Assembly (NCBI GenBank): GCA_043803465.1
Contig: JAZDKC010000074.1
Coordinates: forward strand, 1 to 60,784
Source of the DNA: Candidatus Micrarchaeota archaeon
GTDB lineage: Archaea > Micrarchaeota > Micrarchaeia > Norongarragalinales > SBBD01
Length of the DNA: 60,784 bases
Reading direction: 5' to 3'
Notes under the pieces: model-generated
The model's input: the letters and a program-made list of their open reading frames with translations, nothing else
Told to the model about the DNA's origin: nothing
Databases searched by the model: none
Part shown: piece after piece, positions 482-56,081 of the stretch
Layout of the letters: each line of letters opens with the position of its first letter
Position numbering within the stretch: position 1 is the stretch's first letter
Position numbers and translations under genes: made by a program

Positions 482-583
482 TTCAACCCACCCTCAATAA
501 ATAATATTGGCGGAATAGTAGGCGCGGGCACCATTAATAATGATTTTGGTAAAAACGGCCGCCCAACTACCAGCCCACGATTT

Positions 584-741
584 GACACATATAGGGGATG
601 ATCTAGAACCCCTTAGGTTCTAGTCATGCCAAGAAACTCTTGTTTCTTGAGCAACACATTTCCCCTGCTCGTGTTACGTAGGGCTCCACTCTACTAACAT
701 ACGAAGACATACGTCTTCGGCATGTCGCCTCCGCCCCTTTG
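584..741 (-). repeat. Long (158 nt) form of the GACAC/GTGTC hairpin element, directly after the kae1 stop
   Basis: Minus strand starts CAAAGGGGCGGAGGCGACATG, contains AACACGAGCAGGGG and several hairpins (CGAAGAC/GTCTTCG, CAAGAAAC/GTTTCTTG, CTAGAACC/GGTTCTAG), ends CCCCTATATGTGTC; followed by a copy of the kae1 3' end (567-583). Confidence 0.8.
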
Positions 742-1779
742 CTACCATCCAACGATTTCGGCATCAATCCTCGCCTTTTGGTTGTGCGAGGTGTCTTTCC
801 GATAGCAATTCGAGGCAAATTGGAGTGCGCCGGTTATTGTTATCATGCCCGCATTATCCCCCAATAATCCGAAGGGGGGGAAGCAACAGCCTATATCGTG
901 CTCCTTTGCCAATTCAATTGTCATCTCCTGCAACCGTTTATTCCGGTAATTCCCCCCGACTCCGATGATTTCCCTTTTTCTGGTCAAGGTGAGGGCACGT
1001 TCGGAAGCCTCAAGAAGCGCTGAGAACGCATATTCCTGCGCGGAATAGCAGATGTCGGAAATAGAATGCTTGGCAGGATTCAATTTTATTGCAGCTGTAA
1101 GCACACCGGAAAAGGATGCGTTCATCCCCTTGACGATATAGGGCAAATCGATGAGGTTTTTTCCATTAACCGCCTCGTTCATGACACCCACCGCATCAGG
1201 GGGCGAGAGCTGGAAATGCCTTCCAACGTGATCAAGAAAATTGCCCAATCCGATATCCAATGTTTCACCCAAAACCCGGTAATGCCTTTTCTTTTTCCCG
1301 TTTTCCAACACCATGATTTGCGTGTTCCCCCCTGAAACGTAAATAGCAAGCGGATCTTTGCAGCTGAAAAGGAAGCGCCCAATCTCGATGTGGGAAAGCG
1401 CATGGTTTACGGGCATTATGGGAATATTTTTTGAAACGGAGATGCTCTTTGCCGCAACATGGCCCAAATGGAGGCAATGCCCGATGCCCGGCCCGTAGGA
1501 ATAGCAAACAGCATCCAGATCCGAGAGCGTTATTTTAGCTTTTTCAAGGGTGGCATCCAAAATCCTATCAAAATTCTTCGCATGGAAATCAGCTAGCCTG
1601 CGGGGGATGAAGCCTTCCTTGAGGGAGGGGAACTTCATATCGGTTTCGGAAATGATTTTGGTGTTTTGCGGAGTAAGGGGGTGCGCCTTCGCTTTGCCCG
1701 CTGCTGAGAGGTCAACTTTGCTTTCAACAACTGCTGCGCCAAATGTATGTGCGGTACTTTCAAAACCAAGTATTAACAT
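742..1779 (-). CDS. kae1: tRNA t6A biosynthesis protein Kae1/TsaD
   Basis: ILGFESTAHT, GPG, NHALSHIE, YVSGGNTQ, GETLDIGLGN, DNAGMI; start moved to ATG 1779. Confidence 0.93.
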   Translation of the reverse strand: MLILGFESTAHTFGAAVVESKVDLSAAGKAKAHPLTPQNTKIISETDMKFPSLKEGFIPRRLADFHAKNFDRILDATLEKAKITLSDLDAVCYSYGPGIGHCLHLGHVAAKSISVSKNIPIMPVNHALSHIEIGRFLFSCKDPLAIYVSGGNTQIMVLENGKKKRHYRVLGETLDIGLGNFLDHVGRHFQLSPPDAVGVMNEAVNGKNLIDLPYIVKGMNASFSGVLTAAIKLNPAKHSISDICYSAQEYAFSALLEASERALTLTRKREIIGVGGNYRNKRLQEMTIELAKEHDIGCCFPPFGLLGDNAGMITITGALQFASNCYRKDTSHNQKARIDAEIVGW

Positions 1780-1823
1780 AATTGAAGTCACGCTGCGGAA
1801 ATTTAATAAACTTCTCAAATTAA

Positions 1824-1875
1824 GGGGGGTGGGGGGATGCTAACACGGGCAGGGGCAAAGCCCCCGGGAGGTGTC
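1824..1875 (+). repeat. Hairpin element copy in the divergent kae1/DP1 promoter region
   Basis: G-tract..GCTAACACGGGCAGGGGCAAAGCCCCCGGGAGGTGTC, with TTTAATAAA-containing copies at 1802 and 1877. Confidence 0.8.
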
Positions 1876-1939
1876 GTTTAATAAATTTCCGCAAATAATA
1901 CAATATCGATAGGGGGGAATTCCGGTTTTTTTCGAATTT

Positions 1940-3454
1940 GTGATAACCATGCCTATTGACAGGGCTCAAATTCTGCTCATGCTGAAGGAGAAGGAGCTGA
2001 TGGCATCCCCGGAGGCGTTGGACGCGCTAATCAATTCGGACAACCCCGAGGCGATAATTGGAGAGCTCGCAAAAAGGAATATCATTGTCGCTGATTTTGA
2101 GCAGGTGCACGACATCATTGAAAGCAGGGGGGTGGATGAGAAGGTCGTGCAGGTCGAGGTTCTGCAGGAAACGAGCTACAATCCTGCTGCAAAAGGCGTG
2201 GAGGCCAAGCTAAATCTGTCAATCCGGAACGATGTGACCGGAAAATCACGATGCACAGGCAGCGTGGATGATTTCGTGAGGTATTTCAATGACAGATACG
2301 ATAAGCATCGCAGGAGCCTGAGGGGGATGGCAACAAATGGAGGCGGGCTTTCAACCATTCGGGATGTGAAAAATTACCTCAAAAACAAGGAGGCGCGGAT
2401 CATCACGATGGTTTACGACAAGCGCATCACCAAAAACGGCCACCTGATGTTTGATGTTGAGGACGACCAAAGCACTGCAAGCGTATTGGTGCCGAAGGAC
2501 TCGCAGCTGTTCTACGAGGCATCGCAAATCCTCAATGACGAGGTGGTCGCATTCGATGTGTACCACTCGAACTCCTCGCTTCTTATCGCAAAGAATTTCG
2601 TGAGGCCCGGAAGGCTGCTTCAGGAGCGCACGAAAAAACTCATTGACGAGGATATTGGCATCGGCTTCCTTTCGGATTTGCATGTGGGCTCGAAATTCTT
2701 CATGCAGGAGAATTTCCAGAAATTCCTCGAGTTCATGAACGGGAAGGGCACTGCGGCGCAAAGGGAGGTCGCGGGCAAAATCAAATATTTATGCTTCGGA
2801 GGGGACAATGTGGACGGAATCGGCGTTTTTCCGGGGCAGGAAAAGCAGCTGGTCACAAAAGGGATCCATACGCAATACGAAATATTCTGCGAATTCATAA
2901 AGAACATCCCGGAGCATGTCGAGATAATCATTGCGCCCGGGAATCATGATGCGGTAAGGACTGCGGAGCCGCAGCCTGCGCTCCCGCAGGAGTTCTGGGA
3001 GGCACTGAAAGGCTATAGCAACGTTCATTTTGTCGGCAATCCATCCGCTCACAACGTGCATGGCTTGGAACTTTTGGTTTACCACGGCACTTCCCTTGAC
3101 GGGATAATTTCACACACGCAAATGTACAAGGACGGCTATATACATCCTGAAAAAGTCGCGGTAGGGCTTTTGCAAAGGAAGCACCTCGCCCCGCTTTACG
3201 GGGAGGATCCGTTGGTGCCAGAAGCGCACGATTTCATGGTGATAGAGGAAACGCCGGACATGTTCCATTTCGGGCATGTGCACAAGAATGGGCATATTGA
3301 GAATTACAATGGCACGTTGATTGTTAATTCGGGGACATGGCAGGATAGGACGGATTACCAGGTGAGGCTGGGGCACATGCCAACGCCATGCATCCTGCCG
3401 ATTTACAGCATGAAGAGCGGGAAGCTGCAGCACATTGATTTCAAGGGGGTATAA
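1940..3454 (+). CDS. polB: DNA polymerase D small subunit DP1 (proofreading exonuclease)
   Basis: OB fold plus phosphoesterase motifs SDLHVGS, GDNVDG, PGNHD, YHG, GHVH; adjacent to DP2. Confidence 0.95.
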   Translation: MITMPIDRAQILLMLKEKELMASPEALDALINSDNPEAIIGELAKRNIIVADFEQVHDIIESRGVDEKVVQVEVLQETSYNPAAKGVEAKLNLSIRNDVTGKSRCTGSVDDFVRYFNDRYDKHRRSLRGMATNGGGLSTIRDVKNYLKNKEARIITMVYDKRITKNGHLMFDVEDDQSTASVLVPKDSQLFYEASQILNDEVVAFDVYHSNSSLLIAKNFVRPGRLLQERTKKLIDEDIGIGFLSDLHVGSKFFMQENFQKFLEFMNGKGTAAQREVAGKIKYLCFGGDNVDGIGVFPGQEKQLVTKGIHTQYEIFCEFIKNIPEHVEIIIAPGNHDAVRTAEPQPALPQEFWEALKGYSNVHFVGNPSAHNVHGLELLVYHGTSLDGIISHTQMYKDGYIHPEKVAVGLLQRKHLAPLYGEDPLVPEAHDFMVIEETPDMFHFGHVHKNGHIENYNGTLIVNSGTWQDRTDYQVRLGHMPTPCILPIYSMKSGKLQHIDFKGV

Positions 3455-3642
3455 AAATGCAAAATCAGGGGGGTAGGCGGCAAAACGAGTGGGGAACCGA
3501 AGGTGCCCCGGAGGTGTCGAGCACATTGATTTCAAGAAGTTTTAATTTACGCAAAACGGGGAGGGGAGAGGCGACACGAGTGGGGAACCGCAGGTGCCCC
3601 GGAGGTGTCGAGCACATTGATTTCAAGGGGGTATAAAAATGC
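3429..3642 (+). repeat. Tandem array with 91-bp period: two hairpin elements (3468-3518, 3558-3609) and three copies of the DP1 3' end
   Basis: AGCACATTGATTTCAAG at 3429, 3520 and 3611; 32-bp identity between 3429-3460 and 3611-3642. Confidence 0.92.
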
Positions 3643-28500: not shown

Positions 28501-31500
28501 TGTTGATATCGAAGCCCCGCGGGGAGAAGTAAAAGAGGTTGCCGATGAAATTGTTGTATTTGGTCAGGTTCCCATTGGAAACCGAAGTGGTTGTCAGGAA
28601 GAGATTGGAAATTGTGCTATTTCGGAAGGTGTTGTTCTCTATCGTGTTATTGTTGCAGCCGTTCGAACCCGAAAGGCAGGAGATCTGCAGCGCATAATAG
28701 GAATTGTTGTTGAAGGTATTGTTGTATATCCTCGAGAAATTGAGGTAGCCGCCTGAAGTCGAGGAAAGGTTGACACCGACAGTGTTGTTGTAAAAGAAGC
28801 TGGCGGAAATGTTGTGGAACTGGCCGTTGCGGAGCATGATCCCGTTTGTGGAATTTGAGACGTTGGAGCCCAGCATGGTGAAATTATTGGCATCGATTCC
28901 CTGGACGCCGTTCGTGAAGTTCGTTATCCTGCAATTCTTGACGGTCACGTTGGTCCTGGAGCCGACATCCACGCCGATGCCGCTCCCGTTGCCGGTCACG
29001 AAATAATTGTTGCAATCGATGGCGATATTGTCCGCATTCGCGGTGAAACAGGTGCCTTGTGCGTTCAGGCTTACAGTCAATGCCGTCGAAGTGGCAATCG
29101 AACCGCAGGTGATTATTGGGAGTACCACCAATACTTCGGCGGATTGGTTCGTGGGATAGGTGGTCCAGTTGGTAACCCCCGAATAATTTGCGGTGAAATT
29201 GTAATTGGCAAAAGAGGTGTTAATGGAATTATTACCGAAAAACTCCGTAACCGCAACCCAGGCAGTATAGCCGTTTGCGTCCGTAGGGAGATTGCGATGA
29301 TTTGATGCGCCGCTGCTCGTATTGGTTATGTTCGCATTTGCGCTCTCAATGCCGGCCAGATTCGAACCGGTCACATAAACCCTGAAATAATCCTGGATTG
29401 TGAAGTTGTTGATCCCGCTGGCATATAGCATATTGCTGCGGTTGAATGAATTGTTTATGAAGTAATTGTTCCAGGAACTGGCGAAAGTGATATCCGAGCC
29501 GGTTGGGGATGAAATGATTATGTTGTTTGTGAAATTGTTGAACATAGTGTATTCGGGATTGCCGGCAGGCCCGTTCAGATGGAATCCCTTTGAACTGCTA
29601 TTCCTCACCGTATTGTTGGCAATGGTGTTGTTCTGGGCCCTTCCGCCTACGGCGGTGAAAAATTCGATGCCATCGGAATTGTTATCAAAAATATTGTTTG
29701 CAATGGTGTTATTTACATTATTACCAACAAAACTGAACAGGCCCAGGCCATTCGAATTATTGTAAATCGAATTGTTGGTCACATTAGAAAATGCATTGTT
29801 TTGCAATAAGACCCCATAAGTGGAGTTCCAAATCGAATTATTGGCAATAGTAAGGTTATTCCCTTCGCTGTCGATCCCGCGGTCGAAGGAGGATATGTTG
29901 CAATTACGGATGGTTACGTTGGAGTAAGACGTAATATCCACGCCGTTTCCCGTGCCATCGCCCGATATGGCATGGCCGGCACAATCCAAAACAATATTGG
30001 AGGAAGTAACGGTAAAACAGGTGCCATTCGCGAAAAGCGGAACTGCCAAAGTCGCAGAATATCCGAGGTTGCCGCAGACTGTAACCGGGATGATGATCGG
30101 AACGGCCTGGGAATAGTTGATCATGCTTAAGGTCGAATTCGTATAGCCGTTCCAGGTTGCAGTAACATTGTAATATGAATAATTCGTGTTAACCGAGTAA
30201 CTACCGATGAATTCGTTCAGGGGCACATAGGCAGTCAAGCCATTGGCACCCGTTATTTGGTCCGTATAATTGATTGCGCCGAAACTCGAGTTGGTTATAT
30301 TGACAAAGGCAGACCCAAGGCTGACGCCATTAGAACTGGTGACATTCACCCGGACATAATTCTGCAAGGTCATGTTCCCGGAAGTGAAACCGAGCCTTGA
30401 GCGGGTGAATGAATTGTTGAGGAAGATATTGGTAGAGAAGTTTACATCAGAAATGTTGATGTCGCTGCCGATGCTCGCATTGTAAAAAATATTGTTGGTG
30501 AAATTATTATCCGCTATGAGTTCCGGGTAACTGGAATAGCCAAGCAAATACAAGCTGGTTGTGCTGCTGTTGCGGAAGGTATTGTTTATGAATGAATTAT
30601 TCTGTATGTAATAAAGGGACGTTATAAACAGCTTAATGCCGATGCTGTTGTTCTGGAAAGTATTCGAAAATAACTTGTTTGAGCGGGTCAATGTGCCAAC
30701 CAAGCTCCACGACCTGAAGGTAATCGCGTCGTCATTGCCTGAAAAGGAGTTGTTTGAAAAATTGGAATGCCCAAGGCCGTAGAAAAATACCCCGCGGGTG
30801 CTATTTATGAAGGTGGAATTGATTACGCTTAAATAAGTATTATCCGAGTTGCCACCCACAATGCCCGACGAGAGGTTGATGAAGCTCGAATTGATAATAG
30901 TGACATTGTGGGCAGCAAGCATGTTGACCCCCGCGCCTGTGCGCTGATTGTGGTCGAATACGCTCGAATTGATCAATGCGAAATAGGAGGATCCGATATC
31001 CACGCCATCCGAATTATTGTAGAAAGTAGAATATTCCAGCGTGAAATTGTCAGAGCTGCGGCCATAGATGCCGTCGGTGAAATTCGAAATGACGCAGTTC
31101 TTCACGACGACGTTGTCGAAACCGTTGAGGTCTATTGCGGCACCGGAGCCGCTGCCCATAATTTGCTTGCCCTTGCAGTCGATTGTAACGTCGTTCGCCT
31201 GCAATGTAAGGCAGGACCCCCTTGCATCAAGAATTCCGGTGCTCAAATTGAAATTGCTGGAGACGTTGCCGCACCAATCTACGGTCTCGTTGCTGAATTC
31301 CATGTAGGTGTCCGTCCGATTCCAGAAGAGCGCTATGTTCGCGCAATTCTTCTGGATGGTGCAAGTCCGGAAGCCTAGCCTTTCGCCTGGGTAAAGGGTG
31401 GCGTTTTCGCCCGGGCCCATGGTCATAGTTGCAAAGGCGCCTATGAAGGCCTTGTAACAATCAATTGTGGTATTCGTGCGGTTGATTTCATAAACCGAGC

Positions 31501-33223
31501 CGGTGCTATTGTATTTCAAAAGGCTAACGGTGAAATTTGAGGATTGCCCGGTAACACCCTCATTGCCCTTGAAGCCCAGGTAAATGTAAATTGTCCCATT
31601 CACCAGTTCTTTCTCCAAACCGGCACTTTGATTGAATTGGGGGGTAAACCAGGTTTCGTTGAAGCAGGTCAGGGTTGTTGCATTCGATACATGGGTCCAG
31701 GGGTCGTTATTGGGAGTAGTAACTTGCAAGCTCTTGTTCAGAGTGGCGACATCGCTTGTGGAATTAGACAGGAACCATCGGATTTGGGACGCCGTATTGT
31801 TCGCATATGCGACCGCGTCACCAAAGCGGAATTCGAGGCGATGCGGCCCGGATGTGCGGACGGCGCTTTCCTCCGAGCCCTCGAGTTCGCAGGAATAGTC
31901 TGCAATGAATGCGGAGGTGCCATTGAAACTCGCGCCGGCATCCGCTTCGCCGCACTTGATGAATTTGAACTCCAGGTCATGGTCGAAGGTGGTGTTGTCA
32001 ATTGCAGTTACCGTAAGGGGGGCGGAGCCGGTTGTCGTGAACCGCACGGTCCAGTTGCCTCCGACTGCAGGGAAGCTTTGGAGATTCAGGATCGTGATAT
32101 TCACGCCCGCATAGCCGGAGAAGTGGTCCACCTTGAAATTGATACGGCCATCGGTTTCGGCGAATGCCGCGTCGATCATTTCCCATTTTGCGCAGAGGTT
32201 GGATGCGGCGTCGTAATTGGTGCAGGAAACAATCCGTTCGGTCTTGGAATTTGCCGGGAGGGAAATTAAGGCCTCCTCGAATTCCAGCGAGTTCAGTCCG
32301 ATGAAATCGGTTGTAAAGTAGCCTATGATGTTCGCCCTTTCCGATTGGAAGATGTTTGCAAATTTGGAGGGGGGCTCGCCATTGATATGATCGAGGCTTG
32401 TTGGGTCCCTGAGCCCCAGAATTTCAATGGAGGATCCGTCAAATTCCCCGGAATTCGATTTTTTCCGTTTATCCGAGGCAATGGAGAGCCCGAGGTCATA
32501 AACGGTTTCGTTCGTGCCATTTACGTTTTTCACCCGTTTTTTAAGCGAGGTGAATTTCAATTTTTTCAGATGCTTGAATTTTTCCTTCAGGATCCCCAAT
32601 TCCGGAAGCTCGGCGATGCGGCCGGTTTCGTTCAGATCGGTTTCATTTAGGGAAGTCTGATTGAGGCCGGTCTGGTTGAAAAACGATTCATTCAAAAAGG
32701 TGTTGTTGGAAATAGTCCCATTAAGAATGGTTTCATCCATCAAGGTTTGATTCGCGATTGTATCGTTCGCAATGGTTTGATTTGTGATTGATTCGTTCAT
32801 CCCGGTTTGATTGAGGAATGTTGAATTGGAAATCGTTTCGTTTGCGTCGGTCTCGTTCAGGATCGTTTGATTGACAATCGAATCGTTCGCGCCCGTTTGG
32901 TTGGAAATCGTTTCATTCGGGGAAATGGGATCGCCCGGTTGGGTCTGATTTTCCGAGGTCTGATTGGTCGCATTCGCATCGGGGAAATCAGCGTTTAGCT
33001 CAAGCAGGCCGGAATCGGTGAAATTCGAAAGGTTCGAAAGGGTAAAATTGAAGTCGGTAAGGTTGAGGAATTCCGGTGCAATGCTTGCTGTCGGGTATGT
33101 AAGATTCGTGGAGTTGGAGCTCTCGTTTTGGATGGTTTGATTGATGCTGTCAATAGTGGTTAAAGAGAGAAGTGAAAGCAGGGCTAATGCGAACGGGGCG
33201 AATAAGTAGACCTTGCCGCGCAT
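16556..33223 (-). CDS. Giant (~5,555 aa) membrane-anchored surface protein: beta-helix and Ig-like repeats, TM helix, cytoplasmic HerA/FtsK-like (DUF87) ATPase
   Basis: Signal peptide; NxT/S-rich region; C..I....V..DC.G beta-helix repeats; ~97-aa repeats at ~23.7-25.4 kb; P/T linker; TM ~17800-17865; Walker A GATGSGKT (17612-17635); VLVFDPT; Walker B CVYDEVH; RKWGVGMLLISQ. Confidence 0.88.
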   Translation of the reverse strand: MRGKVYLFAPFALALLSLLSLTTIDSINQTIQNESSNSTNLTYPTASIAPEFLNLTDFNFTLSNLSNFTDSGLLELNADFPDANATNQTSENQTQPGDPISPNETISNQTGANDSIVNQTILNETDANETISNSTFLNQTGMNESITNQTIANDTIANQTLMDETILNGTISNNTFLNESFFNQTGLNQTSLNETDLNETGRIAELPELGILKEKFKHLKKLKFTSLKKRVKNVNGTNETVYDLGLSIASDKRKKSNSGEFDGSSIEILGLRDPTSLDHINGEPPSKFANIFQSERANIIGYFTTDFIGLNSLEFEEALISLPANSKTERIVSCTNYDAASNLCAKWEMIDAAFAETDGRINFKVDHFSGYAGVNITILNLQSFPAVGGNWTVRFTTTGSAPLTVTAIDNTTFDHDLEFKFIKCGEADAGASFNGTSAFIADYSCELEGSEESAVRTSGPHRLEFRFGDAVAYANNTASQIRWFLSNSTSDVATLNKSLQVTTPNNDPWTHVSNATTLTCFNETWFTPQFNQSAGLEKELVNGTIYIYLGFKGNEGVTGQSSNFTVSLLKYNSTGSVYEINRTNTTIDCYKAFIGAFATMTMGPGENATLYPGERLGFRTCTIQKNCANIALFWNRTDTYMEFSNETVDWCGNVSSNFNLSTGILDARGSCLTLQANDVTIDCKGKQIMGSGSGAAIDLNGFDNVVVKNCVISNFTDGIYGRSSDNFTLEYSTFYNNSDGVDIGSSYFALINSSVFDHNQRTGAGVNMLAAHNVTIINSSFINLSSGIVGGNSDNTYLSVINSTFINSTRGVFFYGLGHSNFSNNSFSGNDDAITFRSWSLVGTLTRSNKLFSNTFQNNSIGIKLFITSLYYIQNNSFINNTFRNSSTTSLYLLGYSSYPELIADNNFTNNIFYNASIGSDINISDVNFSTNIFLNNSFTRSRLGFTSGNMTLQNYVRVNVTSSNGVSLGSAFVNITNSSFGAINYTDQITGANGLTAYVPLNEFIGSYSVNTNYSYYNVTATWNGYTNSTLSMINYSQAVPIIIPVTVCGNLGYSATLAVPLFANGTCFTVTSSNIVLDCAGHAISGDGTGNGVDITSYSNVTIRNCNISSFDRGIDSEGNNLTIANNSIWNSTYGVLLQNNAFSNVTNNSIYNNSNGLGLFSFVGNNVNNTIANNIFDNNSDGIEFFTAVGGRAQNNTIANNTVRNSSSKGFHLNGPAGNPEYTMFNNFTNNIIISSPTGSDITFASSWNNYFINNSFNRSNMLYASGINNFTIQDYFRVYVTGSNLAGIESANANITNTSSGASNHRNLPTDANGYTAWVAVTEFFGNNSINTSFANYNFTANYSGVTNWTTYPTNQSAEVLVVLPIITCGSIATSTALTVSLNAQGTCFTANADNIAIDCNNYFVTGNGSGIGVDVGSRTNVTVKNCRITNFTNGVQGIDANNFTMLGSNVSNSTNGIMLRNGQFHNISASFFYNNTVGVNLSSTSGGYLNFSRIYNNTFNNNSYYALQISCLSGSNGCNNNTIENNTFRNSTISNLFLTTTSVSNGNLTKYNNFIGNLFYFSPRGFDINITNINQSTNILLNNSFNRSRIGFSNGNVTIRDYVRIYVRSTAGTAIVNANVNMTNSSFGATNFTNMLTDANGLTDWQEANEFIGNSSSNTSYGIYNFTVAYSGAVNSTLLPINDSKTILMVLPVVPCGTIAASTTLPGSIASNGTCYTISASNINFNCNNFNITGTQQNGSGIVVNGVTGVNITNCHLVNFSNGIELLPGSHIANLSNNTLTNNSNAGIYVNGSANTLLIRGNKFISNGNYSILVDWSGNSNITSNNVSSQFGGNYSSFGLNATAFYFLNLTNSSITNNAISTVIGGRGPVGTDSSRPGKNGGGAIGIFLVNGTNNTFSGNRIVNISGGNGGAPFQTTAASNTGGAGGKAFAIILDSSRNNTFSNNSVTGIFGGKGSAANDIPAGNGAAGGAGGSAIGIALNSSDSIWFNSFNISKVIAGSGGDGAKGGAVNLYGIGGDAGNSTLFISNSSLNTTILDSNFSNSSAGVGGNGSTLGGRGSAFGLQLLSTNFTLVNSSYFDGIVNNSNGTGGLVIGLHFLGSSNNNAFNSVFNYLPASGNNYSVYSEANSQNNLLQNLSITNRKYGWGSGNNNLTVRWNVDIFVGFEDNSPANGANITIRNSTSGVPQYTGLTGATGYNTTQAVTEFTGNDTANTTYNSYNLTATLSPYLPVSQLFDISSYRLLTLTLSPCGTITTDLSLSADVSTTRGTCYTIGADNIQLDCNGYKISGNASADSYGIASNGFRDFRANNCRILNFTNGIFLNNTVNATFNGVNLTNSTQYNLFLNNATYTNFTNSSFGNISLAYGDIYMNNSATGSHFINTAFNRSTTKNGTAGNNMTVFWFMGVIVRDQSNNPVQSASVNIANVTGASMGSGTSDANGRIANQVLQEYDQVAEAAYVPGCTGSDDGINCYIPYNVSATKTVGLLSYRASNSSVLNTSSSVILYLNALPSISLNSPNDLQASSSKTVTFSYAPVDDGGYNNCSIWTNATGTFEYTQLNQSAILNNSANTISYTFAADGDYLWNVQCYDNAIPSSSNFSAANRTVRVDSTGPSSIQTIGPTLGNSSNTSRNWVYANYTFTELNAFNCWVQWVNTSTYNLTATLSNSNCFLNITGQTDGNWNYTLFVNDSAGNLGYNGTFTVTVDTLPPSSIKTESPTLSNNSHWGYGWVYVNASFNEPNPGACTLQYYNGSIANYSMARLDGTCNVNLTSQPDGVWNYTIIVNDSAGNIAQNGTFTVTVDTLAPSNIAMVSPTLANLSFTYRNWVYVNATFTELFPNACVLQWNNGSLMNLTMTRSNNNCYLNVTDQPDGYWNYTIIVNDTSANSAQNGTFYISMDGNPPANINTIYPTPANNSFLNYSWVYINYTFTEINPYNCWVQWANTSVYNITAGMTGNNCYLNITGHADGIWNYTVFANDSSGNIGGNGTFNLTIDTTFPMVDYILPTPDDEINLSRNWIYVNTSYTDANLHTALLYWNSIAEPLTCNAHACFLNKTSLAEGAYSYYVFLNDSAGNSNQTSARSAFIDTINPSEITAVFPTPENYSRIHYDWVYVNATFTEMNPNNCILYWLNGSSQNLTMARSGNNCYLNVTGQPLGIHNYTIIVNDTTGNLGENGTLQVQLWENTALNYKPRAQFYNRFGNANITAIFASLDLSNLTIDSAEADFNYGNGTNITINSNNISLNFSDSPADTEFFNSGIFERGFDSGNAQTHWKVGWDSVVVENSTLLIEAAISQDNVTYSTFENLTNSAGSVLNGTPARYMKYRITFGSNGSVTAFLNEINATALYGLNSNITVNLTNLNSAYSLAKSCSTIDGNCTVGFIFASELIGGNYSVNITATNNSAFYEPASVLYETSFEEAITRGSLLASAKTVSPPTWFLINVTLTNRNNATMFEPLISYLSKGQMASIDKLSTTCGASVPTYSHCNATFNVTVPNLPVSSYTVTWNASYRNNNQTNMTISNSSSVIVQSTHTLSASVSLINITGNLSQMNTTLVTITNTGNTNLANITISFVPSTMDGAWITFDPYDFGGLFPNMNFDLDVMIQALAPFTPGVYTGKVNITADDLINGPNTTATSIDIMVISEPQVTATPTVLIADQNLTSNPTLAANISNPGNAPVTNVSVTLENSTIPDGWISFDSIDPAWDSLTNSWTSITEGTEAVLQIIVTILDFIEGVFSAIIKIVSDEGVATYVNVTVNVTPRLDAVSTINLTIQHGFANATEFYINSTGNVKLVNLMISYNETTLPGSWLAFNTTFIENITEFVNYSVQFNVTVPFGTPPGNYSGQINISGYNANRTIGISVEVPENATWYFLPFGDQYKEFGLAESGAIGTITINNTGNANLSFDIGYGDFGGRASCIGGDPYFQDLCTQAVVPSNPTLLNATKNTTTSFTISKVAAGFSNNSDGYALQITMANNSGVPTSNSTVLYFNITNAFPQFRLAATYVNTAQRPYVEYNQTVTLNVTATDDESYGLNPSTAIFNISRPDGTNETYNALNLTLNPFTACGGTCQDAQSYNLAYNATNMSGRFNVTFQVQDALSQQNMTSFYFTVITITNLTLSGNGSNITNAQRNINSTLLLNLSANNTGLVSAYSINLSGMFARQAGAADTLSNWSFNAIPTIPYINGTLQNLTTFNITVGQRSLGIYYFTPNATWAQPNGTIEVIWGPNLTINITSNPDFNVTASNQSLAIPHGFNQTEWFSITPVGNDNITNYTISLSTNYANFSVTFNHTSGNLTLDGLANVSMNISVVYGANSGFRNFTVNVTGGNYSKSFVVNLTVPFNNTWAANTNLFTLDGIAGENSLDNRTLIAHYGTGDAFLNFTFNLTGNMTDFSNLVNTSKYLNTTQSYDIGINYTAPDNNYLYVGCLNITEKNSSSYQLVNITFRSFTVELSVVNITAPLQVIAGDIINESVLLIFGGQNTTSNTTWSMFLNSTQCPLLSNTTFDNESRLACTAPALLDAVYYDLTVRANYSTGSSYLVKNTTNSGYIFYKDITPPQIIAEYSNDTERYENITLSINATDNLALANATVQVTFPNLTAANYTLLYNPGTNLFANQFNLTALGYYSLVYFVNDTTGNMNYSSAGSFEIYETRIFSGTISNLEGNPIVVNFTVRNTSESNYEAFSTNSSGTYNKSLRAKWYELNLKFLFYNVTADRVDFNTINQSLLSLDNFSGSDISSQILGAKAGFAVISNMPTNGTLIIEYADLLATITDETLLRIYNCHNYTYASRSCVESWSQMQNTSLNTIGNTINGTISAFANTTVAYALVQYTVPTPTPTTLPPYNPPSGGSVGSTGGYTPPQPPAASPTPIPAPTDNVSKQIEELKKLLQENKTKDMGLEPGVQSIVFELYPGESSQTSVHIKNTLNATSKINVTLVGVIRDFITASSKQISLNRMHETDLMIFATIPDKAKTGNYYGELQLQNEVGKISIPVTVRVLDRKEERSLDLRLQPLVDTIDPGETLRVEVNIYNLAEASEIKGIFHLEAVDPVTDSVLEQTQEEEITLQNTYNSIKPIKIPSDAHTGRLVIRGVFDYSVGETLKKRDVTAIAYVRVQTSFWSNKLFGMISIWQFIPLLLILLATIFTYYRQYSVTKSKRRYVAKVDFTKLPEPGLRAGFLGLIAETKVRSFAAIDKLQMHTLIAGATGSGKTVAAQVIVEEALQKNTAVLVFDPTAQWTGFLRAQKNRDMLLNYRRFGMNTDEAKAFKGNIYVVRDPNMAIDIKKLMKPGEITVFVMNKLSFADHETFISNTVKQVFAAGLPESPQLKLLCVYDEVHRLLPKFGGRGEGFIQIERGAREYRKWGVGMLLISQVLSDFVGEIKANIGTEIQMRTKYEGDLERLKLKYGEDSARSIVKESIGSGMVQNSEYNNGQPYFVSFRPLLHNVVRLSDTELSQYETYNDKVEKLEADMEQLRQEGHDVLDLELEINLARDKVKKGAFNIVEIYLDSLSQKIESMRKKSGQKPSPRIDMLDFGIGDILGEKKADEAAGKDAKTDAEKKDIA

Positions 33224-39799: not shown

Positions 39800-39842
39800 T
39801 TGATTTCGGATTTATTAGAGATATTTAATTTTAGGAACCCTT

Positions 39843-39886
39843 GACACCTAGGGAATACGAATCCCCCATCGTGTCGCCTTGCCCCC
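39843..39886 (-). repeat. Hairpin element after the phosphoesterase stop
   Basis: GGGGGCAAGGCGACACGATGGGGGATTCGTATTCCCTAGGTGTC, followed by a copy of the gene 3' end (39815-39842). Confidence 0.9.
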
Positions 39887-39888
39887 TC

Positions 39889-40677
39889 TTAGAGATATTT
39901 TATCTTTGGAAACTCCTTGACGCCGCCTTCCTCATCGATCACTGTTGGAACGAATTCATCGATGTTGCAATCCTTTAGGATCGGCGACACCAGATCGTTG
40001 TCATAATGGCCGGAAACAAGGTCCGTGCCAGATGCAAGCGGGGATAAGGAGGGGAGTACCAGCAGCTCCTTCCGGTTGAATTCGCCCCTAAGCGCGCAAT
40101 TGTATTTATGGGGCACATTTATCTCATCGCGCAGCGAAACAGCGGGGTGCACATGCCCGATCACAAGGGTTTTGTATTCCTTGAATTCCGGAATATCGCC
40201 GTATTCCTCCAATTTCTTGTGCCCGTGGACGAATAACACGCCCTTTTCGAAAAAATAGTCGTGCATTTTCAGGTTCTGGTTGCGCAATATCTTTTGCACG
40301 TAATTGTCATGGTTTCCGCGCACCAAAATCAGCTCGATTTCCCGCTTCTTGAAAAAATTAAGCAATTGCAGCACTTCATCCCATTCCTGCTGCAGCGGCT
40401 TTGAGAATTCGTGCTTGAGATCGCCGTTGATCAGGACGCGTTTTGCCTTGGTTCCCTTGAGCATCGCCTCAAGCCGTTCAATAATTATCGGGAATTGGGG
40501 GGCAGGCACCTCGATGCCGATATTATGAAGCACCGCCTCATGCCCCATCTGAATGTCGGAAACCGCAAGCAGCCCAAGCTCTTCGAAATAAACCCCGCTT
40601 TCCTTGAGGACCTTGATTTTTGCACCTTCCCTTTTTTTGAAGAAATTATCGATTCGAGAGCGCATATCCATTTTCAA
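39889..40677 (-). CDS. Lhr-associated metallophosphoesterase
   Basis: SDIQMG, NGDLKH, RGNHD, VHGH, GHVHP; downstream of lhr. Confidence 0.88.
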   Translation of the reverse strand: MKMDMRSRIDNFFKKREGAKIKVLKESGVYFEELGLLAVSDIQMGHEAVLHNIGIEVPAPQFPIIIERLEAMLKGTKAKRVLINGDLKHEFSKPLQQEWDEVLQLLNFFKKREIELILVRGNHDNYVQKILRNQNLKMHDYFFEKGVLFVHGHKKLEEYGDIPEFKEYKTLVIGHVHPAVSLRDEINVPHKYNCALRGEFNRKELLVLPSLSPLASGTDLVSGHYDNDLVSPILKDCNIDEFVPTVIDEEGGVKEFPKIKYL

Positions 40678-44912: not shown

Positions 44913-45168
44913 GCAACGCCTCCGGGGGACCGGTTGCCCCTACTCGTGTTGCCCCTACCCCTTCTGATTTTGAATACCTTTATAACCGGCAACTCCCAAA
45001 ACAATAACGCAGTCTTCCAGATAGCCGGGGAGCTAAGGGATTCGACACCCACAGGGGAATGGCTTCCCCTCCACGTGTCGCCGCCACCCCTTCCGATTTT
45101 GAATACATTTATAACCGGCAACTCCCAAAACAATAACGCAGTCTTCCAGATAGCCGGGGAGCTAAGGG
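44913..45168 (-). repeat. 129-bp period duplication: two hairpin elements (44913-44961, 45044-45090) plus a duplicated SRP promoter/5' end
   Basis: 83-bp repeats at 44957-45039 and 45086-45168, 2 mismatches. Confidence 0.92.
45108..45114 (+). promoter_or_regulatory. TATA box of the SRP RNA gene (duplicated at 44979)
   Basis: TTTATAA ~24 nt upstream of the predicted RNA 5' end. Confidence 0.7.
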
Positions 45169-55959: not shown

Positions 55960-56081
55960 AATGGCAAATATGAAGGGGTAAGGCGACACGATAGGGGAAA
56001 CGTAGTTGCCCCTCAGGTGTCATGAAGAAATTGCTCAAGAAGAGCGAAAGAGTGGAGAAATGAAATGGCAAATATGAAGGG
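55918..56081 (+). repeat. Perfect 60-bp duplication of the nrdR 3' end around a hairpin element (55975-56021)
   Basis: 55918-55977 = 56022-56081; element GGGGTAAGGCGACACGATAGGGGAAACGTAGTTGCCCCTCAGGTGTC. Confidence 0.93.

Follow-up and report, generated by a model that had tools for sequence, protein, structure and literature searches.

REP sequences, BIMEs and REPINs are short extragenic palindromes of bacteria that are mobilised by RAYT (Y1) transposases, whose gene lies in the same genome and typically has the repeats on its flanks, and they are not known to be flanked by long duplications of gene ends. The MITEs and palindrome-associated transposable elements derived from IS200/IS605 are small and non-autonomous, Rickettsia palindromic elements insert in frame within coding sequences, and TnpB omega RNAs are encoded at, or overlap, the 3' end of tnpB within the transposon. 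Insertion with long target duplication, another route by which DNA enters a genome, was reportedly treated by Nobusato and colleagues in 2000. When restriction-modification genes enter in this way, the resulting repeats often span start or stop codons, which spares the target gene (Furuta et al. 2010, PMC2853133).

The locus analysed here is a 158-nt sequence with several hairpins (the long form), which lies at 741..584 on the minus strand of the window, that is, of the whole 60,784-nt stretch of Micrarchaeota DNA under analysis. We consider it, with a probability of roughly 80%, a non-coding, non-autonomous composite member of a lineage-restricted family of Micrarchaeota hairpin repeats, found in relatives of the Norongarragalinales, that come and go at gene boundaries. 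The composite would consist of the G-rich leader of the family, an optional HP1-HP2 domain, the two-tier core of the family and a separately distributed pair of hairpins, HP3-HP4, nested in the apical loop. The features of the locus, followed by the short family members of the window, are:

742..758, minus strand: upstream, functional gene-end copy AAATCGTTGGATGGTAG, the last codons and stop of TsaD/Kae1
727..741, minus strand: G-rich 5' leader CAAAGGGGCGGAGGC, family consensus GGGG(U)AGAGGC
696..726, minus strand: HP1, GACAUGCCGAAGAC-GUAU-GUCUUCGUAUGUU; helix 1, 100% of cells paired, 2 two-sided pair changes
676..695, minus strand: HP2, AGUAGAG-UGGAG-CCCUACGU, with one A.C mismatch in this copy; helix 2, 98.8% paired
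662..675, minus strand: core hairpin, 5' strand, with the outer stem AACAC, the internal loop GAGCA and the inner stem GGGG
653..661, minus strand: rest of the apical loop, AAAUGUGUU, which begins as it does in the short siblings (GGGGAAAUGUGUUCCCC)
598..652, minus strand: twin-hairpin module nested in the apical loop, HP3 CAAGAAAC/GUUUCUUG and HP4 CUAGAACC/GGUUCUAG, each with a short outer stem
584..597, minus strand: core hairpin, 3' strand, made up of CCCC, the internal loop UAUAU and GUGUC
567..583, minus strand: downstream "fossil" gene-end copy AAATCGTGGGCTGGTAG, flush with the 3' end of the element
1815..1877, plus strand: short family member located where TsaD/Kae1 and the PolD small-subunit gene diverge, 45.6 bits
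3459..3611, plus strand: two tandem short members (3459-3520 and 3551-3611) that separate the small- and large-subunit genes of PolD, where the stop/start junction occurs three times
39841..39897, minus strand: weak short member (E 5e-4) accompanied by a duplicated gene end
44913..45101, minus strand: two short members (44913-44972 and 45042-45101), the second with a 77-nt flanking duplication
55964..56023, plus strand: short member with an identical 56-nt flanking duplication, in which both a stop codon and the following start codon are included

On the minus strand, the long form starts with CAAAGGGGCGGAGGCGACA and finishes with CCCCTATATGTGTC, its 5' end being CAAAGGGG..GGCGACA and its 3' end CCCC..GTGTC. 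A pattern match places the exact core 14-mer AACACGAGCAGGGG at 675..662, and the sequence itself bears out the claim, made in an earlier note on this DNA, that the long form has its ends and its core in common with the short units. The three hairpins that the note had named, CGAAGAC-GTAT-GTCTTCG, CAAGAAAC-AAGA-GTTTCTTG and CTAGAACC-TAAGG-GGTTCTAG, are all present, the last two within the GGGG/CCCC stem. To these we add a fourth hairpin, HP2 (GUAGAG-UGGAG-CCCUAC, with one A.C mismatch), and an outer extension of HP1 (ACAUG/UAUGU). The order of the parts is thus a G-rich leader, HP1, HP2 and a two-tier core hairpin, with the HP3 and HP4 block in the apical loop of the core. Folding, proposed earlier as a check, yields -62.5 kcal/mol for the RNA of the minus strand, far more stable than shuffled sequences (z = -5.42, 0/200 shuffles equally stable); the plus strand of the same stretch gives z = -7.14 as RNA, and the minus strand gives z = -5.72 when folded as DNA.

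The short unit of the family, about 55 nt in length, comprises an A/T-rich stretch with stop codons, the leader GGGG(U)AGAGGC, the segments RACAC, GAGUA and GGGG, a loop, and finally CCCC, UGGAG and GUGUY. Within the window, the core 14-mer has six matches at up to two mismatches, compared to 0.29 expected, three of which are ordinary coding-like sequence without elements; across the 1.4 Mb genome, 24 matches are found at up to one mismatch, compared to 2 for a reversed-pattern control. In an alignment of 22 short units with two helices, 93.0% of the cells are paired (83.2% in shuffles) and five pairs have changed on both sides. The covariance model of the short form (R1) has 64 matches in this 1.4 Mb genome and is matched in 10/10 other genomes of the same taxonomic family, with 4 to 53 copies each, and in 0/30 genomes from ten other families of the order.

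Long and intermediate copies were found by BLAST with the 158 nt in this genome (contigs C40, C42, and C25) and in three others (G003, G005, and G001). Twelve of these copies align as leader, HP1, HP2 and core, with 98.7% of the cells paired, compared to at most 54.5% in a slid-partner control, and with six pairs changed on both sides; pair 62-70 in HP2, for instance, shows a GC/CG swap in 3/12 sequences. The corresponding model of the long form (R2) scores the copy at 741..584 with 81.8 bits (E 1.3e-18) and matches in all 11 genomes of the taxonomic family. Its matches span about 95 nt or more, including HP1-HP2, in genera g1, g3, and g4, and 150 nt or more (full-long copies) only in this genome (G000), G003, and G005, which belong to one genus. 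The leader together with the two-tier core (RACAC, 5x5 internal loop, GGGG) is the hallmark of the family, and it is present in the copy at 741..584. The earlier description of this sequence as the long version of the short-unit family therefore holds, since further long and intermediate copies occur here and in relatives and their helices covary; an absence of other long copies and of covariation had been named as grounds against it, and long copies and covariation were both found.

As for the wider distribution, the PolD small subunit has its closest named relatives in metagenome-assembled genomes labelled Candidatus Norongarragalinales and Candidatus Micrarchaeota. Metagenome contigs hold 20 matching stretches that look like relatives, and viral contigs have no exact match to the 23-nt degenerate core pattern. 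Among the titles and abstract openings listed in literature searches on Micrarchaeota palindromic repeats and on MITEs, none describes such elements; this analysis adds how the long form is built, that its site is empty in congeners and that the twin-hairpin module is independent.

Many copies also carry a 5' extension, (G)ATTGATTCGCARAAnnAAWTAAGG, with stops in up to three frames (e.g. G000:C28:3345-3380 and C49:24424-24445). Two or three frames are closed in the 32 nt before the leader in 43/71 elements, compared to 804/5000 random 32-mers, a control that ignores the neighbouring gene's own stop and AT-rich spacers, and all three frames are closed in 13/71 elements, compared to 54/5000 random 32-mers with this same imperfect control.

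The block formed by HP3 and HP4 (652..598) aligns with five other copies, with 91.9% of the cells paired and six pairs changed on both sides. Its model (R3) matches this locus at C74:597-654 with 73.4 bits and matches both strands of each site, the block being palindrome-like. We count about 5 R3 sites in this genome, only 2 of them within long forms, about 18 in G003 and about 10 in G005; 9/10 family genomes have matches, and so does a single genome from outside the family. The module is found in diverse contexts. It occupies the apical loop of the core or the space between RACAC and GGGG, and elsewhere it is embedded in a different repeat (GGGGGUUUGGGC..CGACCAAAC), adjacent to a tRNA gene, or placed at the 3' terminus of 16S. 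The different repeat is a second family, GGGGGUUUGGGC .. CGACCAAAC .. GGGG-loop-CCCC UUGGGUUGGUC, seen at G000:C60:7620-7830 and at sites in G001, G005, and G006. The 16S case is locus L132 (G012:C77, ~2700-2830), from another taxonomic family, in which an R3-type twin-hairpin, enclosed by two GGGGAACCTGCGGGTGGATCACCTCCT-like copies, occupies the 3' end of the 16S rRNA gene.

In the long form at 741..584, the block lies between GUGUU and CCCC with no evident duplication, a placement that follows from the loop start which the long form (AAAUGUGUU) shares with its short siblings (GGGGAAAUGUGUUCCCC). From these alignments, HP3+HP4 looks like a nested, independently distributed module, and its gain by nesting is a better reading than deletion. 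The HP1-HP2 domain behaves differently: all of the hits of its nhmmer profile (6/6) fall inside family members, and it is present in at least three genera. In G003 and G005, short and intermediate copies agree in their leader and internal loop, and what separates them is a block with repeated RACA at its borders; a loss of HP1-HP2 through this short bordering repeat is plausible.

These data also bear on the proposal, in the earlier note, that the short copies are internal deletions of the long form. It is at most half right: gain fits better for HP3+HP4, an independently distributed module with other hosts and positions, and for HP1-HP2 either gain or loss would fit. A broader version, in which the whole family descends from the long form, or from any form containing HP1-HP2, as its "master", and the short units arose by deletion, draws on the confinement of HP1-HP2 to family members (6/6 hits), on its presence in genera g1, g3, and g4, and on the RACA-bordered difference between the copies of G003 and G005. 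Nevertheless, full-long copies of 150 nt or more are restricted to three genomes of one genus, the HP3-HP4 module is independent and occurs at different positions, no locus among the 39 compared in 8 genomes is conserved in more than two of them, and the copy at 741..584 is itself a recent insertion. We regard such a progenitor as rather unlikely.

The long form begins right after the TAG of the TsaD/Kae1 gene (PF00814, E 2.6e-55), and its neighbours are this gene and a cytidine/dCMP deaminase gene. The element is inserted directly after the TsaD/Kae1 stop codon, with the last 17 nt of the gene on both sides, so the gene keeps its end. The two 17-nt copies are identical at 15/17 positions, and both differences (GTT/GTG and GGA/GGC) are synonymous. 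The repeat begins 2 nt before the end of the R2 model match and scores 24, between the 95th (19) and 99th (27) percentiles of a position-blind local-alignment null. Two congeners corroborate the repeat: in G001 and G002, only about 90-100 nt separate the deaminase gene from TsaD/Kae1, with a single gene end and no element. Given this presence/absence polymorphism, the long form at TsaD/Kae1 is a recent insertion.

This arrangement resembles the long target duplications of PMC2853133, in which, as far as the excerpted text of that paper goes, direct repeats of long and variable length also flank the insert, a related genome holds the empty site, and no transposase is present. The cargo described in that excerpt is a kilobase-scale set of restriction-modification genes in single copy, whereas here it is a gene-less hairpin repeat of 50-170 nt in dozens of copies. 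The same text requires a direct repeat to exceed 30 bp and to align with one copy in a genome with the empty site; at 741..584, the empty site is seen and the repeat is 17 nt, and the repeats of 56, 67, and 77 nt at other family copies exceed 30 bp, length alone being compared. A divergence between repeat copies that falls mainly at synonymous sites, as in the Micrarchaeota elements, is not described in the excerpted part of PMC2853133.

Across this genome, the flanking repeats of 31/71 elements score higher than the 99th percentile of a null built from mismatched pairs, and in most of these 31 elements the downstream copy starts within 4 nt of the element 3' end, as in the flush gene-boundary duplication at TsaD/Kae1. 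The repeats measure from 17 to ~95 nt. The differences between repeat copies comprise 42 synonymous, 12 non-synonymous and 6 non-coding changes, the 12 including some calls from doubtful ORFs that were kept in the count, and 41/54 of the coding differences fall at codon position 3. Multi-step synonymous switches, AGA/CGG and AGC/TCT (read by eye from the sequence), are among them. Since the divergence is biased to synonymous sites and includes such multi-step switches, the copies resemble a pair of alleles, each of which evolved under coding constraint.

Several loci show particular forms of these duplications. The junction between the stop of the PolD small subunit and the start of the large subunit (..CACATTGATTTCAAGGGGGTATAAAAATG) is found at 3428-3459 and again at 3611-3641; the duplication keeps the stop codon, the ribosome-binding site and the ATG, and between the two junction copies are two short elements and a third, partial copy of 18 nt. 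Degenerate repeats of this junction, without a recognisable hairpin, are present in G004 and G005, and the "foreign" small-subunit end (..KKF*) was found in none of 9 loci in relatives. At L050 (G003:C73, ~31200-31900), an array of at least four family elements has each element placed after a copy of the same gene end (..DYLAKPLLKK*), and these copies differ heavily at synonymous sites, so that the array looks like a stack of fossil alleles. L041 (G000:C40:200-600) is a chimeric long element, made of the 5' half of the long form followed by a complete short unit. It is flanked by ~95-nt repeats that hold the C-terminus of an acidic ribosomal-protein-like gene (..AAAGLASLFG*) and ~55 nt of spacer, and the coding differences between them, read by eye, are all synonymous, including AGC/TCT.

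The long form encodes nothing and no effector gene is found beside it. The search for candidate mobilising enzymes covered reverse transcriptase, TnpB and Y1 transposase, in a genome that is 90.7% complete and may thus lack a transposase that the organism has. In this assembly, neither reverse transcriptase (PF00078) nor the TnpB domain (PF07282) has a match, and the Y1 transposase (PF01797) has 0 matches. PF07282 is above cut-off in 1/11 family genomes (G009) and in none of the three genomes with full-long copies, and PF01797 occurs in 5/10 family genomes and also in other families without the element. At eight loci with these genes (7 Y1, 1 TnpB), the twin-hairpin model R3 has 0/8 matches and R1 has two clear matches, both at a distance of over 1 kb from the gene. 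None of the three enzymes, considered as mobiliser, fits the distribution of the element. A SINE-like retroelement repeat spread by target-primed reverse transcription would need a reverse transcriptase in the genome, and PF00078 has no match in this 90.7% complete assembly.

Further long copies do occur near protein genes, as the earlier note had proposed to look for, and no protein gene recurs beside them, either at 18 loci or at 39 loci from 8 genomes. The exceptions among the 39 are three cross-genome pairs that have ordinary neighbour genes in common, and no long-copy locus is conserved in more than two genomes. Rfam 15 at its gathering threshold gives no match to the element, the only match in the window being a tRNA elsewhere, and a search at E up to 10 of positions 400-2000 of the window returns nothing that overlaps it, so that no Rfam family corresponds to it.

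The suggestion that the sequence is a full-length scaffold RNA of the TnpB omega-RNA type is not supported by these results. The likeness consists of a length of ~150 nt and several hairpins, whereas here there is no tnpB gene, no IS200/IS605 context and no Rfam match, and the neighbours are the TsaD/Kae1 and deaminase genes. More generally, a scaffold that guides an RNA-dependent nuclease or recombinase, be it omega-RNA-like or of another kind (TnpB, IscB or IS110 type, of which the search covered TnpB), would be consistent only with the size, the multi-hairpin shape and the variable sequence that abuts a constant 3' end. That abutting sequence, however, is a duplicate of the adjacent gene end and not a transposon flank; the TnpB domain was not detected in this genome and is above cut-off in a single one of the 11 family genomes; no effector gene adjoins any of the long copies examined (18, then 39 loci), no Rfam family matches, and the site is empty in two congeners. 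The long form looks like the largest, nested version of a small gene-less repeat, and we consider a guide scaffold of any of these types very improbable.

Whether the family acts as RNA or as DNA is reflected in its stems and its orientation. The consensus stems comprise 629 Watson-Crick cells, 10 G.U and 12 A.C, with no strand signal. Very few wobble pairs are more typical of DNA palindromes than of RNA genes, and these near-pure Watson-Crick stems are a hint of DNA-level structure. The minimum free energy favours the sense strand in 61/71 elements, for which the G-rich composition may be the cause. In crude ORF calls, the orientation of the 71 elements relative to gene ends is sense only for 19, antisense only for 15, both for 11 and neither for 26, and elements are found after stop codons, between divergent genes (1815-1877 of the window), and antisense to the ends of tRNA genes.

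One alternative is that the elements are functional structured RNAs within transcripts, for example 3'-UTR stabilisers, terminators or protein-binding modules recruited by the host, of which the long form would be a more elaborate version. This would account for the strong RNA fold, the covariation of all helices across genera, the greater stability of the sense strand in 61/71 elements, the conserved single-stranded leader and internal loop, and the co-oriented stop codon just 5' of many copies. On the other hand, the elements are not conserved at orthologous loci, some copies lie between divergent genes or antisense to the ends of tRNA genes, orientation relative to gene ends is without clear bias, and G.U pairs make up only ~1.5% of stem cells. 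Taken together, a transcript-level role as the primary explanation seems distinctly unlikely. The conserved unpaired leader, the 5x5 internal loop and the cross-genus covariation could nevertheless point to a function beyond mobility, and the sense-strand stability in 61/71 elements would also fit an RNA role.

Compared to the small palindromic elements of bacteria, the Micrarchaeota repeats share some features with each class. Like REP, BIME and REPIN sequences, they are short extragenic palindromes with Watson-Crick stems that occur in many copies near gene ends and as mosaics of modules, but long duplications of neighbouring gene ends flank them, and Y1 was not detected in this genome, is present in only 5/10 family genomes and is accompanied by the twin-hairpin module at 0/7 Y1 loci. 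They resemble MITEs in being small, non-autonomous and built of hairpins, as does the twin-hairpin, which is nested without evident target duplication in its host loop. Nevertheless, no terminal inverted repeats are present beyond a 5-bp stem, target duplications are not of a short, fixed length, and no parent insertion sequence was found; with ends formed by the G-rich leader and GUGUY and with flanking repeats of 17 to ~95 nt, the elements differ from classical MITEs. Rickettsia palindromic elements are likewise small palindromic repeats of a reduced genome that leave essential genes undestroyed, whereas here the gene is spared through duplication of its end.

The reading of the long form as a composite mobile repeat at gene boundaries thus leaves the mode of entry to be explained. 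Against this reading, none of the enzymes searched for came to light as a mobiliser and insertion intermediates were not observed; the mechanism is one that we infer. The folded hairpins would act as DNA, either single-stranded or cruciform, to be cut and joined by a putative nuclease or recombinase of the host or acting in trans, and entry would be a form of insertion with long target duplication. Three routes could explain why the two copies differ mainly at synonymous sites. It is quite conceivable, if somewhat short of even odds, that alleles from related strains later took the place of the gene body and the upstream copy, as far as the element, and that the downstream copy persisted as a fossil. 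A second, more doubtful route is that a small fragment or circle with the gene end and the element, from a related cell, recombined at the homologous gene end. An RNA-mediated route appears improbable.

We tentatively propose, as a possibility that may well prove wrong, that these hairpin repeats form an undescribed class of mobile DNA that needs no protein of its own. A structured cassette, often with stops in several frames, would enter gene boundaries with, or by copying, 17 to ~95 nt of target and would thereby spare essential genes, and successive invasions would stack fossil gene ends of different alleles. The class would be hierarchical, the twin-hairpin, as a second and independent repeat, colonising the loops of the first and the composite persisting at gene ends. 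If this is true, reduced DPANN genomes with almost no recognisable transposases hold dozens of actively turning-over repeats, entry through long gene-boundary duplications avoids damage to tightly packed essential genes, and the fossil gene ends are a record of past alleles and of recombination in uncultured populations. The nested long forms would also indicate that complex RNA-like structures with several hairpins can be assembled from simple mobile modules, which calls for caution in the discovery of non-coding RNAs by folding and covariation alone.

We also observe two associations with stable RNA genes. Family elements adjoin tRNA genes at L094, L102, and L085 (G009 and G010) and at G000:C56:12519-12578; some of them are antisense to the tRNA 5' end and have 12-20 nt of the tRNA gene duplicated. 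In addition, the 3' strand of the element (e.g. 1866-1874 of the window) has a conserved internal loop and stem, UGGAGGUGU, that is complementary to the sequence with which 16S ends in a relative (..GGATCACCTCCT), and GGAGG-like runs are found in the leader of the element as well.
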